A stretch of 31,808 nt of DNA from a virus. A model generated the notes under the pieces. That model did no database searches, had not been told where the DNA came from, and saw only the letters and a program-made list of their open reading frames with translations. The stretch lies in UHGV virus genome UHGV-0195917; one strand, 5' to 3'. Positions 8,585-14,538 of the stretch are shown piece after piece. Both the position numbers and the translations under genes were made by a program. Positions within the stretch are counted from its first letter, which is position 1, and every line of letters begins with the position of its first letter.

Positions 8585-8613
8585 TTGACAATAAGCGGGG
8601 ATTATGGTATAAT
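8585..8613 (+). promoter_or_regulatory. Consensus sigmaA promoter driving a short rightward transcript
   Basis: TTGACA (8585-8590), 17 bp, TATAAT (8608-8613), with TG extension. Confidence 0.85.
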
Positions 8614-8619
8614 TAAGTC

Positions 8620-8747
8620 AACGCGAAAAGGCGAAAAATCCAAATGCGCGGTCAGCTGCCGCGCGGGTTTTGCGGCGTGGGATTGGTGCACCGATCTCGC
8701 GCTATTTTTATGCAAAGAAAAAGAGACTGTTTCCAGTCTCTTTTTTT
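8620..8747 (+). ncRNA. Candidate structured small RNA
   Basis: Lies between a perfect promoter and an intrinsic terminator. Stems GCGCGG/CCGCGC (8646-8664) and GGGATTGG/CCGATCTC (8679-8698). No ORF with a good SD. Confidence 0.5.
8718..8747. terminator. Bidirectional intrinsic terminator
   Basis: AAAAA-GAGACTG-TTTC-CAGTCTC-TTTTTTT. Confidence 0.88.
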
Positions 8748-8820
8748 GGATTAGGCGATACGCTTTCGACTTTTTACAGTCACCCCCGCACACGCGGGGA
8801 CTGGGTATCGCCTGATCACA
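8718..8820 (-). ncRNA. Solitary type I-E CRISPR repeat-like RNA (candidate Racr / crRNA mimic)
   Basis: Minus strand reads CCAG-TCCCCGC-GTGT-GCGGGGGTGA-CTG (core 8780-8800), matching the Firmicute I-E repeat form. Single copy, with its own promoter and terminator. Confidence 0.6.
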
Positions 8821-8825
8821 TATAC

Positions 8826-8854
8826 AGTATATCATGGATGCGGGCGGATGTCAA
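8826..8854 (-). promoter_or_regulatory. sigmaA promoter for the repeat-like RNA
   Basis: Minus strand TTGACA (8854-8849), 17 bp, TATACT (8831-8826), with TG extension. Confidence 0.8.
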
Positions 8855-8873: not shown

Positions 8874-9203
8874 TTAGATATCGTATACGCCAAAGCCCTG
8901 ATCGATGTACTCGGCACCATCGTACCGGCTTTCAGTCCCCAGCCGCTCATACAGGCGCGCCGCGCGGTCGTTGTCCGGGGCGATGGCCACACCGCCATAG
9001 ATATCGGACACTTGCAAGAGGGCATCCGTTCCGATCCCGCGGCCGCGGTACTGCTCGTCGATGTCGATCCGCTCCACGTACGAGCCGTCGTCGCTGTCCA
9101 TGACGGTCATGGCTCCCACCGTCACGCCCTCGGAAACGATCTCATATCCGATCGCCGTGTAACTATCTTCGATCTGCTCGCGTACTTTAACCAACTTCGT
9201 CAT
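8874..9203 (-). CDS. Minimal GNAT family acetyltransferase
   Basis: Acetyl-CoA motif A IDIDEQYRGRGIGT and motif B DNDRAARLYERLG. GGAGG SD and own promoter. Confidence 0.85.
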   Translation of the reverse strand: MTKLVKVREQIEDSYTAIGYEIVSEGVTVGAMTVMDSDDGSYVERIDIDEQYRGRGIGTDALLQVSDIYGGVAIAPDNDRAARLYERLGTESRYDGAEYIDQGFGVYDI

Positions 9204-9232: not shown

Positions 9233-9273
9233 TGTGATTATATTATACCACGTAATCCGTGGAAAGTCAAGAG
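9233..9273 (-). promoter_or_regulatory. Promoter with palindromic operator (copy 1)
   Basis: Minus strand TTGACT, 17 bp, TATAAT; the spacer contains CCACG-GATTA-CGTGG. 40/41 identical to 10574-10614. Confidence 0.85.
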
Positions 9274-9299: not shown

Positions 9300-9662
9300 T
9301 CAAAAATTTTTCCGGTTAAAAGCCCCGACCAGCTGCGCCAGCATAAGACGAAGATATGGCGGGCATTTAGATATGCCGCGCTCCCAATCTTCCAATGAAC
9401 GGTAGGGAATACAAAATTTGTCGCAAAATTTCCGCTGCGTCAGCCCAGTATGTCGCCGGATATCTCGCACGCTGAGATGCGCGACGTCCCATAAGCTTTC
9501 CAGCTGATCCAGCAGATAGAGGTCCGGATCGGCGTCGTCCGGGATTTCGTCCTGCTCGATCTCGGCACCGTGATGCATCCAGTAGTCCAGGAAAGCATCC
9601 CGGCCATCGGCCGGGAGCGACACCGCAGCGGAAAAAATATCGTGGAAATGCTTGTCATCCAT
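9300..9662 (-). CDS. HTH regulator with acidic N-domain (Aca-like)
   Basis: C-terminal XRE HTH IRRHTGLTQRKFCDKFCIPYRSLEDWERG. GAGGTG SD. Last gene of a small-gene operon whose promoter holds a palindrome. Confidence 0.75.
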   Translation of the reverse strand: MDDKHFHDIFSAAVSLPADGRDAFLDYWMHHGAEIEQDEIPDDADPDLYLLDQLESLWDVAHLSVRDIRRHTGLTQRKFCDKFCIPYRSLEDWERGISKCPPYLRLMLAQLVGAFNRKNF

Positions 9663-9759: not shown

Positions 9760-10122
9760 TTACAGGCATCCGATGCGGTGGCACTTTTCGATGACGCTCA
9801 TGTCGTTCCACTCGTCGATCTTTTGGTTGATTTCTTCCGTCATCGCTTCGATGGCTTCGCGGAAAGCGTCGCTTTCTGTGTCCCAGCGTCCGTAGATTTC
9901 GCCGATGTCGCTGTCATCATCTTCAAGCCACTCGCGGTACTCGTCGTCTGTCATGCCGGTGACGCCGGTGATTTCCGGGTAGTACATGACGTACTCATCG
10001 AAGTGCTCGCTTTTGTCCTCCACTCTGATGCTGATCCGGAGATCGCCATCGTCGTCCAGCTCAAGCGCAGCATAGTCGGTCATCCAAAGGTCGAACATTT
10101 TTTCAGTAGTGAAATTTTCCAT
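9760..10122 (-). CDS. Small highly acidic hypothetical protein (anti-defence candidate)
   Basis: 120 aa with 36 D/E versus 10 K/R by hand count. AGAAAGGA SD. Confidence 0.75.
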   Translation of the reverse strand: MENFTTEKMFDLWMTDYAALELDDDGDLRISIRVEDKSEHFDEYVMYYPEITGVTGMTDDEYREWLEDDDSDIGEIYGRWDTESDAFREAIEAMTEEINQKIDEWNDMSVIEKCHRIGCL

Positions 10123-10174
10123 GATTTTGCATCCTTTCTGGGCGGGTTAGCCGCCGCCCCCGGCTATTTTTTAT

Positions 10175-10525
10175 TTATAAGTTCCCAAGATGTTCCGCCA
10201 GGCGTTTCGCAAGCTGGCACATAGCACCATAGAAAACCGGATTCTCAGGCGTGCAATATCTGTAAACGCCGGACACACGATAAAGATGCGGATCGTACTC
10301 ATCATCACGAAGCCCCATCAGCTTCGCACCATCGACACTAACGTCCACACAGCACTCATCGTCCCAATGAGAACCTGGAACCCAAACCATAAAATAGACC
10401 AAACCGGTTTTACGATCGATGTTGGTTTTTCCACGCAGGGAATTCCACCAAGCATACGCATGATCAACGGTCACATTTTTCATCCCTTTATGGGGGAACT
10501 CTTTAACTTCAATAAACTTTTTCAT
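10175..10525 (-). CDS. Hypothetical protein, apparent distant paralogue of 9760-10122
   Basis: 116 aa from ATG 10525 with AGAAAGGA SD. First gene after the 10574-10614 promoter. Confidence 0.72.
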   Translation of the reverse strand: MKKFIEVKEFPHKGMKNVTVDHAYAWWNSLRGKTNIDRKTGLVYFMVWVPGSHWDDECCVDVSVDGAKLMGLRDDEYDPHLYRVSGVYRYCTPENPVFYGAMCQLAKRLAEHLGNL

Positions 10526-10573
10526 GGTAGACATCCTTTCTAAAAGTGAGGGTTTTGTTATTTCTCTTGATCT

Positions 10574-10682: not shown

Positions 10683-10966
10683 TTTGCCGCACTTTTTGCC
10701 GCACTTTTGCCGCACTTTTGCCCTTTGCCGCACCCCTGCCGCAGCCGTTTTGCACCCAAATGCACCTAAAATCCCCTTTGAAAAACGATACAAAAAATGC
10801 CAGTTTATCGCGATATACCGCAGCAAACCGGCACTTTCAAAGATCGGGCGTTAAAATATCCGCTAAATGGTAAAATGACAAGCATTTATTATGTTTTTTT
10901 CAAAATATCGCATGATAGCGCGGAAAATTTGGCTCCCATTTTACCCTTGCCGCACTTTTGCCGCAC
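10683..10966. repeat. Putative attP with arm-type integrase repeats (TTTGCCGCAC)
   Basis: Four full copies at 10683, 10695, 10706 and 10724. Two more at 10947 (9/10) and 10957, at the int 3' end. They flank an AT-rich non-coding gap directly downstream of int. Confidence 0.7.
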
Positions 10967-12050
10967 TTTCAGAAATTTCCGCTTTATGGGATTCCCTGTA
11001 ATCCCGCAGGGCTTGCTCTGCTGAAATTTCCATTTCATCCGTAAAATGGGTGTAGACGTTCGCTGTCATTTTTATGTCAGCATGTCCCATAAGTACCTTT
11101 GCGATGTTGAGCGGGACGCCTGCCGCTTGCATATCCGTGGCAAAAGTATGCCGCAGGCAGTATGCGGTGAGATCGGGCGCGAGCTTTGACACGGCTATGA
11201 GCTTTCCGCGCATCACAGCGCCCATCTCGATGTCCAGAGCGCGTCGAAAGCTCCGCCATAGCGCTGAACCGGTGTACTGATCTGGCGGCGTCACGCCGTC
11301 TTCCTTTGTAAAAATATGGACAGATCGAGCCTTGCGCTTTGCGGCTTGAAGATCGTCCATCAGCTCCGGTGGAGCTGGGACGCGACGCACACCGGCGCGT
11401 GTCTTGGTGGTGCCCCGCCATATCGAGTGGGACACAGATATGACGCCGCGCGGAAAATCGATATCCGACCACAGCAGATCGAGCGCTTCCGATGGACGCA
11501 GCCCGCAGTACAGCATGATTTTGACCCACAGACCAGCGCGGTGCGTCTCAGCGACTTTTAGTATGGCGGCGCGCTCCGCTTCGGTGATCGACCTGTGCGT
11601 GCCCTCCCATGTCTCTGGTAACTTTATCCCTCGCATGGGATTTTTCGGTATAATATCATCGTTCACTGCGCATTCCAGTATTTGGAATGCAGTTACGTGG
11701 ATTCTTCGGACTTTGCTCCTGCTTTCCCCAGCGTGCGATGATAGTATGCGAGCGCAGTGGCTTCGCCGGATGTCGGAAATACTTAAATTCCCAACTATTG
11801 GATTTATATGTAACCGTATATCCGCCTCATACGACTGGCAAGTTTTTTTGGCAACTGTACCCTTTTTATACGTTTCGAGCCAATATGCTGCATAGTCTTT
11901 GAATTTTGTATTACTGTTCATGACAGTAATCCCATTTTCAACCTTTATCCGCGCTTCCAGTATCTTTTTTTCCAGCTCCGCTTGGCTATCGGCCCGGATG
12001 GTCATCCGCCGCCCGCCCGGCAAAGTGATATCTTTTCTAAATTTTTGCAT
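10941..12050 (-). CDS. int: Tyrosine integrase
   Basis: Catalytic motifs GLRPSE (R), TKT (K), YCLRH, MGH and VYTH (Y). SAM-like core-binding domain. GAAAGGAG SD. Confidence 0.95.
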   Translation of the reverse strand: MQKFRKDITLPGGRRMTIRADSQAELEKKILEARIKVENGITVMNSNTKFKDYAAYWLETYKKGTVAKKTCQSYEADIRLHINPIVGNLSISDIRRSHCARILSSHAGESRSKVRRIHVTAFQILECAVNDDIIPKNPMRGIKLPETWEGTHRSITEAERAAILKVAETHRAGLWVKIMLYCGLRPSEALDLLWSDIDFPRGVISVSHSIWRGTTKTRAGVRRVPAPPELMDDLQAAKRKARSVHIFTKEDGVTPPDQYTGSALWRSFRRALDIEMGAVMRGKLIAVSKLAPDLTAYCLRHTFATDMQAAGVPLNIAKVLMGHADIKMTANVYTHFTDEMEISAEQALRDYRESHKAEISESAAKVRQG

Positions 12051-12386: not shown

Positions 12387-12950
12387 ATGAACTTTAGGGA
12401 CTATGAGAAATCGCGTGATAGCGCGTGGAAAATACTGATCGACTGCCACGTGGGTGGCCTCCCGGTTGAAGTGACTGGCATATGCCATCATCTCGGCATC
12501 TGTATACGCGCGCTGGATGTGGACGATATGCGCGACGGCGTGAGTACGGTCATCGACGGTGTGCCATATATCGGGATTAACCGCTTTCGGCCGGTCGAGC
12601 GGATACGCTTTACCATAGCGCACGAAGTCGGCCATATCATCCTGGGACACGTCGGCCGATATGACCATATAAATCGCGAGCCGTCCATGACAGATAACCC
12701 CATCGAGCACGCCGCGGACGTCTTTGCGTCGCGACTGCTAGCTCCGTCGTGTGTGCTGTGGGGGTGCCGGGTGCGCTGTGCAGAGGATATCCGGATACTA
12801 TGCGGCATCAGCCACGCCGCGTCCGTGTACCGCTGGGAGCGGATGCGCGTGCTGTACCAGCGAGGAAAATTTTTCAAATCCCCGCTAGAACGACAAGTGT
12901 ATTCCGAATTTTGGGATTTCATTCAGCACCATCAGTTTCCAGCTGTGTAG
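12387..12950 (+). CDS. immA: ImmA/IrrE family metallopeptidase (anti-repressor)
   Basis: RFTIAHEVGH (HExxH) and EHAADVFASRLLAP motifs. Located between int and the repressors. Confidence 0.9.
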   Translation: MNFRDYEKSRDSAWKILIDCHVGGLPVEVTGICHHLGICIRALDVDDMRDGVSTVIDGVPYIGINRFRPVERIRFTIAHEVGHIILGHVGRYDHINREPSMTDNPIEHAADVFASRLLAPSCVLWGCRVRCAEDIRILCGISHAASVYRWERMRVLYQRGKFFKSPLERQVYSEFWDFIQHHQFPAV

Positions 12951-13710
12951 TGGACGACACCCGGTACGCTTCCAGGCTCAAAATGGCATCTACGACGGCT
13001 TTTCCGTGCGCGTCGAGCGAACGGATTTTTTTTATATACAACTTTTCTTCGTCCGTGAAGATATCGCCGCTTTCGGGTGTGCCGAAATCGCAAAAATCAT
13101 ACAAATTTCTTCCCAACGCTTGTGAAATTGCCGCGATATTGCTCCACGTGGGGGATTTTGATATTCCGGCAACGATTTTATTTATGGTACTTTTTGGCAC
13201 ACCGGATTTTTCAGCGAGTTCATCGATCGTCAGCCCGGCGGCCTTTCTGTACATCGATATTTTTTCGCCTATCGGTATCGAATCGAAAGATTCCGGCCTT
13301 AAATTTCCTGTGCCTATCGATTTTACATCAAGACCCACTGCGCCGAAAATTTTTGTTACGATTCCGACACCGGCATTTGAAATTCCGCGTTGCAATATGG
13401 AATATATGGTTGAACCTAGGATTCCTATATCATTTGCCAAATCTGCGATAGAACCGTATTTTTTACATATCTCACGTCGAAGCTGCTCTTCCTCAGAAAG
13501 CGATTCTTCTTTTTCTTGATCCATCAGCAAAGAATTCGCATCGCACCCAAGCGCCTGCATGAGCTTTTGCAAAATCTCTTTGCGGGGCATACTGACATTA
13601 TTCTCATAATTTGCTATTGCACTGGCTGTCACGCCGACTATTTCCGCAAGCTGCTCCTGCGTCAACCCGGCTTCCTGTCGAAAATCCCGAAGATTTGTCG
13701 AAAAACTCAT
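12919..13710 (-). CDS. Triple XRE-HTH protein B with CI-like C-terminal helix
   Basis: Three HTH domains (aa ~1-63, ~72-137, ~147-207) and tail EEKLYIKKIRSLDAHGKAVVDAIL. AAGGAG SD. Confidence 0.85.
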   Translation of the reverse strand: MSFSTNLRDFRQEAGLTQEQLAEIVGVTASAIANYENNVSMPRKEILQKLMQALGCDANSLLMDQEKEESLSEEEQLRREICKKYGSIADLANDIGILGSTIYSILQRGISNAGVGIVTKIFGAVGLDVKSIGTGNLRPESFDSIPIGEKISMYRKAAGLTIDELAEKSGVPKSTINKIVAGISKSPTWSNIAAISQALGRNLYDFCDFGTPESGDIFTDEEKLYIKKIRSLDAHGKAVVDAILSLEAYRVSSTTQLETDGAE

Positions 13711-13713
13711 TTT

Positions 13714-14538
13714 TTACACTCCTTCACATCTTTCCGCTTCTTTTTCAAGCACAAAATCAACCATTTCCCTGCCATGCACGTCTAATATGCGGTATTTCCC
13801 CAACATTTCCATTTCTTCTTTTGATGGCGTGGGTTTCGGCGCGGCGGGCAGTCCGAGAAGATCGTTGGCGGATATGCCCAATTCTTTGCAAATCGTTTTT
13901 ATCATGTCTGCGTTCGGACGATTTATGCCAAGCTCCCAATTTGACAATCTTCCGGGAGATATATCCAATTTTTGTGCAAACTTTTTTTGTGACAGGCCAG
14001 CGCTTTCTCTCAGTGAACGGATTCTTTGTCCTATATCATAATTTTTTATTTCTGCCCCATCATCCCCGTGCGTCCCAAGAAGATACGATGGCGGAATTTC
14101 CAATGCTGCTGCCAATTTTTGTATCATATCACGCTTTAAGTCAATGCGACTGTTTTCATACTTGCAAACGGCCTGTTTTTGTACGCCAATCATTTTCCCA
14201 AGTTCTTCCTGCGTCATTCCGAGTTCAAGACGTCTGCATCGTATAAGTGATCCTATATCCATTATTACATTTTGTGGTAAATTTCGGCGCCCTGAGATGT
14301 TGGATATCTGTTCAATTTTTTCGGATTCTGGATATTCCTGGAATTCCTTTAATATATTTTCCACTTTGTAGATTTTACAAAGCAGCATCAGCATCTCGAT
14401 ATCTGGCTGGCCACGGCCATTTTCCCATGCGTTCACGGCCTTCCCGCTTCTCCCTATCATGGTGCCGACCTGATCGGCAGTAAGACCTTGATTTTCACGC
14501 ATTCTTTTCAGCGCTTTCGCGATAAATTCCCTCGACAA
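13714..14538 (-). CDS. Triple XRE-HTH protein A with CI-like C-terminal helix
   Basis: Three HTH domains (aa ~1-66, ~93-155, ~168-229) and tail EEMEMLGKYRILDVHGREMVDFVLEKEAER. AAGGAG SD with TTG start. Confidence 0.87.
   Translation of the reverse strand: MSREFIAKALKRMRENQGLTADQVGTMIGRSGKAVNAWENGRGQPDIEMLMLLCKIYKVENILKEFQEYPESEKIEQISNISGRRNLPQNVIMDIGSLIRCRRLELGMTQEELGKMIGVQKQAVCKYENSRIDLKRDMIQKLAAALEIPPSYLLGTHGDDGAEIKNYDIGQRIRSLRESAGLSQKKFAQKLDISPGRLSNWELGINRPNADMIKTICKELGISANDLLGLPAAPKPTPSKEEMEMLGKYRILDVHGREMVDFVLEKEAERCEGV

Follow-up and report, generated by a model that had tools for sequence, protein, structure and literature searches.

The question raised by this locus is what RNA a lone type I-E CRISPR repeat-like unit in a phage genome would produce, and what that RNA would do to the CRISPR machinery of the host. 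The window, meaning the entire 31,808-nt stretch of UHGV virus genome UHGV-0195917 that was analysed, appears to comprise nearly the whole of a temperate tailed phage, with terminase, portal, capsid, tail, holin, M23 peptidase, integrase and repressor genes, and no Cas family was found among the 51 ORFs scanned with Pfam (256 ORFs are listed in the window). The best annotated relatives of the terminase were phages of Exiguobacterium, Geobacillus and Ruminococcus (50–63%), and named relatives of the integrase came from Oscillospiraceae, Desulfitobacterium and Dialister; because of these relatives, the host is likely a Bacillota bacterium. No close prophage was present in 401 genomes of the family of G004, where phage genes matched at 65–73% at best, and 404 CRISPR spacers fetched and compared with the window gave nothing beyond one 15-nt match. 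Cse1 was present in 15 of 401 and 18 of 401 genomes in Oscillospirales-type samples. Elsewhere in the window, short repeats at 10695–10743 and 10928–10984, between the accessory operon and the integrase, likely mark the attachment-site region, and the stretch 12919–14538 carries two neighbouring repressor-like genes with three HTH domains each, within an immunity region of seven HTH genes.

All parts of the unit lie on the minus strand. As the preliminary description had stated, a sigma70-type promoter (8826..8854) precedes the repeat, with a −35 box TTGACA at 8854–8849, a 17-nt spacing, and an extended −10 element (TG at 8834–8833, TATACT at 8831–8826); it was predicted by consensus match (11 of 12 positions), lies directly upstream of the repeat unit, and was retained in runs X3 and X7. 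The 5′ arm of a closing helix (8805..8817) starts 8 nt past the −10 box and stops at the edge of a single 28-nt type I-E repeat-like unit (8777..8804), which consists of a hairpin (8800–8784) and a handle (8783–8777) and contains the previously reported 21-nt core at 8800–8780. From known I-E processing, Cas6e would be expected to cut between 8784 and 8783. A 15-nt pseudo-spacer outside the closing helix (8762..8776), which may form a weak 5-bp hairpin with the handle, is followed by the 3′ arm (8749..8761), and the inverted repeat 8817–8805/8761–8749 was verified as 13 bp, with 12 Watson-Crick pairs and one A-C mismatch. The unit ends in an intrinsic terminator (8714..8745, hairpin 8745–8718) with an A-run ahead and a U-tract behind, which is likely bidirectional; its stem was retained, with an altered loop, in X2, X7 and L269, and a pattern-based terminator scan did not list it.

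The repeat is intergenic and, since the best similarity of any 28-nt segment within 100 nt on either side was 46%, it is solitary, as had been claimed; the second repeat required of a viral CRISPR mini-array is absent at the RNA unit. The I-E core pattern occurred once in the window and in none of 300 first-order Markov simulations. Folding of the RNA 8820–8746 gave a z-score of −5.6, and that of the terminator −5.05, with none of 200 shuffles as good, and the predicted fold is a three-way junction of closing helix, repeat hairpin and the weak handle/pseudo-spacer hairpin. No Rfam family reached its gathering score for this RNA (best local E-value 0.47), and likenesses to pistol, twister-sister and hammerhead ribozymes were dropped for want of an Rfam match. 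On its sequence, the unit is a promoter-driven phage element with one I-E repeat-like hairpin inside a conserved leader/trailer inverted repeat.

A separate promoter of perfect consensus (12 of 12) faces this RNA from the opposite side (window 8585–8745, plus strand), with a similar promoter in L269. It would yield a folded non-coding transcript of 90–125 nt (z-scores −3.9 to −6), ending at a hairpin or at the shared terminator.

For the repeat itself, 15 consensus I-E array repeats were fetched, and the 28-nt unit was identical to them at 14–20 of 28 positions. The likeness to I-E repeats was borne out, with hairpin and handle agreeing with Oscillospirales I-E array repeats at all of the fixed positions and the stem and GGGGGTGA part agreeing with most of the 15, while both repeat ends are degenerate. 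SRUFinder calls at least 90% identity and at least 90% coverage to a known repeat, with a score of at least 41.1, against 17,823 repeats; the best value here (20/28) lies below these cut-offs as judged on the 15 fetched consensus repeats. A 20-nt core string, searched in one orientation, had no match in the accessible supplements of PMC10651486. Because the repeat is degenerate at both ends, recognition by Cas6e and Cas5e is not assured.

Conservation was assessed on contigs of related phages. Runs X3 and X7 come from two studies, and in their contigs the cassette was retained although both flanks had been swapped. Nine of the 14 differences of X7 and four of the six of X3 were listed by position, the remainder lying near the ends of the pieces, and the listed changes within 8820–8749 were 8813 with 8753 (A-U to G-C), 8755 (G-C to G-U) and 8767 (U-G to U-A), that is one compensatory pair and one G-U change in the helix, one change in the small hairpin, and none in the repeat. 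The probability that four random changes would preserve every pair and avoid the repeat was 0.012; as X3 and X7 carry the same changes, they count as one set of events. The leader/trailer helix is thus conserved in related phages by pairing-preserving changes, with the repeat unaltered. The earlier classification as a solitary repeat, Racr or crRNA mimic is likely right in view of the match to I-E array repeats, the solitary state, the phage setting, the unit's own promoter and the unchanged repeat in two related phages, and fell short in treating the helix as minor. The pseudo-spacer showed a single change in 15 nt among four relatives, and the allele of X3, X7 and L269 preserves the handle hairpin.

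Two other relatives carry only part of the unit. A metagenome scan returned 18 loci, one of them homologous (L269, a relative at 81–89% identity), in which terminator, 3′ arm and pseudo-spacer are present with the same alleles and promoter, 5′ arm and repeat are missing; this state is most simply a deletion, and the unit is therefore dispensable. In X2, terminator and 3′ arm were retained, and the stretch upstream differs, its complement, as judged on 30 of 51 letters, resembling a ribosome site and start codon, so that it is either a swapped spacer or an unrelated insertion and the unit was apparently replaced. X4 and X8 had no contig over 8640–8900 and have no bearing on presence, and no RNA data were listed among the 10 runs, which have no bearing on expression. 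Two exact-pattern scans of viral contigs for close homologues gave 13 and 42 loci, none homologous; scans for related loci by the GNAT, HTH and 120-aa proteins of the neighbourhood gave 1, 0 and 0 loci, with no such RNA in the 2 kb covered in L056; and BLAST against annotated phages and plasmids gave terminator-only matches or none.

These losses, together with the degenerate repeat ends and the failure to find a target, could be taken to mean that the unit is a decaying mini-array remnant, or else a folded small RNA that has nothing to do with Cas proteins. Such a reading is very unlikely, given that the core is perfect and the promoter intact, that the changes preserve pairing, that the cassette persists in X3 and X7 despite both swapped flanks, and that the same layout occurs in unrelated phages.

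A scan for the core returned 24 viral loci, two of which (L072 and L076) showed the same promoter distance and a leader/trailer helix. A promoter-plus-repeat scan returned nine viral loci and 120 loci in genomes, the latter mostly ordinary arrays. Seven of the nine viral loci had a leader/trailer helix, unrelated in sequence, and the L072 and L076 contigs accounted for two of these seven. The unrelated single-repeat viral units L081, L082, L083, L085 and L330 are closed by 10–15-bp arms of differing sequence, and in six single-repeat units the 5′ arm starts 5–8 nt past the −10 box, at the predicted +1, and stops 4–9 nt ahead of the hairpin, at the repeat edge. By a shuffle test (fixed windows, 200 shuffles; 47 of 130 loci unscored with the trailer beyond the locus end), 10 of the 12 units that combine an extended −10 element with no more than three repeats scored p ≤ 0.01, as did L082, compared with 1 of the 70 remaining testable loci. 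Over all loci in the study, a helix of at least 9 bp from +1 was present in 6 of 7 single-repeat units, 14 of 21 repeat-bearing loci and 4 of 57 repeat-free strong promoters, and raising the threshold to 10 bp gave 4 of 7 single-repeat units against 3 of 57 repeat-free promoters; the 9-bp threshold is the window's own value, and since the window, L085 and L087 had framed the hypothesis, these counts are not fully independent.

A scan carried out after the hypothesis had been framed returned 18 loci: two re-finds, L330, L342, ten two-repeat units and four arrays. L330 was a new single-repeat unit and was clamped by such a helix (p = 0.005); L342, a single hairpin with no −35 box, was unclamped, as were all ten two-repeat units (nine of one family) and the four arrays. 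The chromosomal unit L277 was also unclamped. Closing helices were found around two- and three-repeat units too (L087, L089, L094, L099, L181, L186, L193), which have no need of a stand-in cap, and since multi-repeat units are also clamped and ten two-repeat viral units are not, the helix may merely stabilise or terminate the RNA. G-U outnumbered A-C pairs in the arms by 5 to 4 over 22 loci (in L059, L062 and L079 a helix other than the leader arm was taken), a count by which pairing at the RNA level is therefore not demonstrated, and free lengths of 27, 37, 38, 39, 41 and 45 nt gave no clear 6-nt step. Five of the seven clamped viral units scanned adjoin lysis-type genes, as in the window. 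The closing helix recurs in unrelated phages and appears to be undescribed: searches of the open-access literature, exclusive of the preprint supplements, whose 219 Cracr candidates may include relatives, turned up no account of a solitary repeat enclosed by a leader/trailer helix.

Several further loci came to light in these scans. Gut phages carry a family of two-repeat I-E mini-arrays (L331, L332, L333, L335, L336, L338, L340, L343, L344; about 2500) with their own promoter and terminator, a short self-folding spacer and no closing helix, a candidate Cracr family. L094, L186 and L193 have an opposite-strand promoter after the 3′ arm, and these units may therefore be transcribed from both ends. 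In two high-GC viral contigs (L007, about 1390–1470; L013, about 1445–1530), a 30-nt spacer is flanked by an I-E repeat and a degenerate second one, and in L089 (2756–4033) an RRXRR-HNH (IscB-like) gene and a resolvase directly follow a clamped two-repeat unit.

For the product of the window unit, the preliminary description had proposed a handle, a spacer-length segment and a 3′ terminator hairpin. The distance on which this rested holds, as 35 nt separate the last base of an 8-nt handle (8776) from the GC part of the terminator stem (8740), but the 35 bases do not stand as a free guide, only the first 14 (15 with a 7-nt handle) being outside the helix and the A-run. The proposed product omits the conserved leader helix, with which 15 free bases would remain.

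The reading preferred here, to which we give an even chance, is that an RNA of about 105 nt is cut once by Cas6e and that its helix-held halves load a shortened, non-cutting Cascade, acting as an anti-CRISPR decoy. Transcription from the 8854 promoter would give the predicted three-way fold, and Cas6e, as the repeat match suggests, would cleave once at the stem base; in the accessible text of PMC4499155, Cas6e cleaves there and remains on the hairpin, and Cas5 and Cse1 take the 5′ handle. Cleavage at 8784/8783 would produce a 36-nt 5′ piece (arm and Cas6e-bound hairpin) and a 70-nt 3′ piece (handle, 15-nt guide, arm and terminator), with a predicted binding energy between the two of about −16.5 kcal/mol. 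The two pieces would stay paired, which would bring the Cas6e hairpin directly to the guide's end, its place in a normal crRNA. In an antiparallel helix the guide end and the repeat start exit on the same side, so the guide/repeat junction would look like the usual joint between spacer and repeat, except for the helix that branches off there. With the pieces held together, one repeat would therefore provide both 5′ handle and 3′ cap.

From the cut to the 3′ arm there are 22 nt, a 7-nt handle and 15 nt of guide, and such a guide, at the standard 33 nt minus 18 nt, would hold three Cas7 fewer. In the accessible text of PMC6859484, StCascade assembles on spacers of 15–57 nt, and its −6, −12 and −18 forms show no locking and no Cas3 cleavage. 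A short-guide complex would thus be expected to consume Cas subunits without risk to the phage, and would probably titrate Cas5, Cas7, Cas8 and Cas6 away from immune crRNAs. The predicted pairing of the handle with the guide counts against the decoy reading. In E. coli Cascade, Cas6e and the 3′ handle are dispensable (PMC4499155, accessible text), and tethering is therefore not required.

The helix might instead be a generic end-protecting stem, shielding the 5′ end or doubling as a terminator and opening after the cut, whereupon the 3′ piece (handle, about 35 nt and hairpin) would load a near-normal Cascade. The spacer-sized distance from handle to terminator, the function of terminator-ended crRNAs without Cas6e (accessible text of PMC4499155), the U-run after the 3′ arm in L083, L085, L087 and L330, and the closing of multi-repeat units are all consistent with this. 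It is nevertheless decidedly improbable, as L083, L085 and L330 leave no space for a full spacer outside the helix and need no separate hairpin, the arms stop at the repeat edge in 6 of 6 single-repeat units, and the predicted duplex is strong.

The decoy could also work as RacrIF1 does, with Cas6e on the upstream product nucleating a Cas7 filament without Cas5 and Cas8. This is the tested Racr mechanism (accessible text of PMC10651486), and clamped units with 38–68 nt upstream and 10–16 nt downstream of the cut (L061, L064, L067, L073) could work so. It requires a long single-stranded upstream product, 70–76 nt in active RacrIF1 by the same source, whereas the window RNA would offer 36 nt with about five unpaired bases predicted, leaving only a slim chance of RacrIF1-type action here.

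The units just named belong to a second viral family (L059, L061, L062, L064, L067, L073, L079; about 1390–1600) that combines one or two I-E repeats with a long 5′ segment; from the cut to the 3′ arm there are only 10–16 nt, and the arms of the closing helix vary between members yet pair. A RacrIF1-type decoy fits this family better than the window unit.

The same processing is also compatible with a guide of the Cracr or crlRNA type, in which the 15-nt pseudo-spacer would direct Cascade to repress a host promoter (of cas genes, a CreT toxin or another defence gene) or that of a rival phage. In favour of such a guide, short guides bind without cutting (accessible text of PMC6859484), viral Cracrs include units of a single repeat with a terminator as well as I-E cases (accessible text of bioRxiv 10.1101/2024.10.29.618823), the pseudo-spacer is nearly constant among the four relatives, and it is complementary to a −35-like motif, exactly so in the X3/X7/L269 allele. 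Ruminococcus chromosomal mini-arrays, both clamped and unclamped, also match neighbouring DNA, with an AA PAM in five of nine cases (binomial p = 0.001, for matches chosen by eye).

A promoter to be guided to, as had been suggested for this RNA, was not found. No match of PAM and seed was present at cas promoters in 28 I-E loci (398 kb), and the pattern of PAM and guide gave 14 matches in 29 I-E genomes against 46 for a control; of six matches inspected, none lay at a cas gene. These negatives are weak, since the sequences searched apparently do not cover the true host. The phage's own 10611 promoter agreed with the guide at 11 of 15 positions at best, two of the mismatches falling in the seed, and lacked an AA PAM there; the mini-arrays ahead of cas8e in L317 and L318 have spacers unrelated to the pseudo-spacer. 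A promoter-directed guide is unlikely, though the likeliest of the alternatives to the decoy.

The preliminary description had further drawn support from an acr/aca-like operon beside the unit. Directly upstream, in a variable slot, lies a GNAT acetyltransferase gene (8874..9203, minus strand; Pfam PF00583, E-value 1e-7), with another gene in its place in X7 and L269, and its slot has its own promoter (9242..9270, minus strand), 93% like the promoter 10611–10583. Next is a gene for an HTH protein (phrog_25567; 9300..9662, minus strand; weak HTH_3 match below the Pfam cut-off), a candidate Aca-like autoregulator, and under the 10611 promoter are two small genes of 119 and 120 aa (9760..10534, minus strand) without family or structure match. 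The promoter 10611–10583 carries a palindrome between −35 and −10 that is nearly repeated at 9270. In L269, paired promoters (minus strand, 157 and 1903) share a palindrome unlike that of the window, and the sequence of the HTH helix also differs, which likely reflects co-variation of operator and regulator. Aca-like autoregulation would fit, because palindromes and HTH helix differ together between the window and L269. Within the window, the acr/aca likeness goes no further than a resemblance: an HTH gene with palindromic promoters is there, but for the small proteins no Acr counterpart turned up in Pfam, NCBIfam, PDB sequences or the Atlas, nor in a fold search (on a weak model).

The GNAT-slot gene of L269, and likely also that of X7 (30-nt junction), belongs to phrog_16123, as do genes that flank L330 and L086. 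A nine-sequence phrog_16123 profile matched AcrIF23 at an E-value of 0.0011 over one motif, and a fold search (E-value 3.1) brought no confirmation for the L269 gene. Neither the structure model of the 120-aa protein (pLDDT 58) nor that of the L269 protein (pLDDT 64) matched any fold at E ≤ 0.001. AcrIF23-like genes have been reported beside viral mini-arrays (accessible text of bioRxiv 10.1101/2023.03.03.530964).

Ruminococcus genomes hold many promoter-driven two-repeat I-E mini-arrays dispersed away from cas genes: L246, L255, L257, L258, L301–L310, L372 and L373 in G001 (the genome behind L099), L313 and L314 in G003, and L094. The mini-array promoter had seven matches in G001, two in G003 and none in 27 other I-E genomes. 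Several spacers of G001, G003 and L094 match neighbouring DNA over 25–32 of 33 nt or by 10–11-nt seeds, often with an AA PAM; one spacer matches the start of a gene that presumably encodes a protein resembling ribosomal protein L28, and some mini-arrays sit in 5′ leaders right ahead of the ribosome site. These arrays possibly form a Cascade-run host regulon.

Solitary repeats are detected by repeat similarity alone, and what flanks them counts as filler. A functional closing helix would mark out a structural class of I-E RNA anti-CRISPRs, one that current filters overlook where the repeat is degenerate; it would also allow the size and composition of the Cas complex to be predicted from sequence, and would offer a one-repeat guide design for type I-E tools. 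A wider idea, possible but doubtful, is that Bacillota phages repeatedly evolved a circularly permuted, two-piece crRNA in which one repeat with one cut is used twice, a helix replaces the covalent spacer-repeat link, and the position of the helix determines how long the guide is, from 15 nt in the window up to full length in L082, so that Cascade is tuned as decoy, repressor or killer without a second repeat.

Among known systems, RacrIF1, RacrIE1 and RacrIE2, as presented in the accessible text of PMC10651486, are alike in that a single repeat-like hairpin lies between genes of a phage, has its own promoter and is not accompanied by cas genes, and the window RNA is likely a Cas6 substrate and Cas titrator too. 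It differs in that its repeat lies below the SRUFinder cut-offs against the repeats fetched, that its upstream product would be short and paired where RacrIF1 has 70–76 nt, and that it has a conserved leader/trailer helix, which that text does not mention for Racrs. CracrVA1, CracrIE1/2 and CracrIF (bioRxiv 10.1101/2024.10.29.618823) and CreR/CreA (bioRxiv 10.1101/2023.03.03.530964), in the accessible portions of both preprints, share the arrangement of repeat, short spacer-like segment and terminator, and the short guide of the window would likewise bind but not cut, in competition for Cas proteins. Unlike for those Cracrs, no promoter target was found for the window, and the I-E Cracr tested there is an array of several repeats; neither "stem" nor "leader" occurs in the accessible main text of the Cracr preprint. 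Terminator-ended I-E crRNA and shortened StCascade (accessible texts of PMC4499155 and PMC6859484) indicate that handle and guide suffice and that 15-nt guides are non-cutting, but those RNAs are engineered and single-chain, whereas the window is predicted to give a two-piece RNA held by a helix. Leader-repeat hairpins (accessible texts of PMC13187072 and PMC12080349) are alike in that pairing of the leader RNA shapes the yield from a lone repeat; they block extraneous crRNAs in type VI and II-C host arrays by pairing leader with repeat, whereas in the window the leader pairs with the trailer and the repeat is left free. As judged from sequence comparison, the window unit is a conserved, promoter-driven mimic of an I-E repeat and belongs to the known SRU/Racr/Cracr kind; its closing helix, recurrent and apparently undescribed, alters the product to be expected from it.
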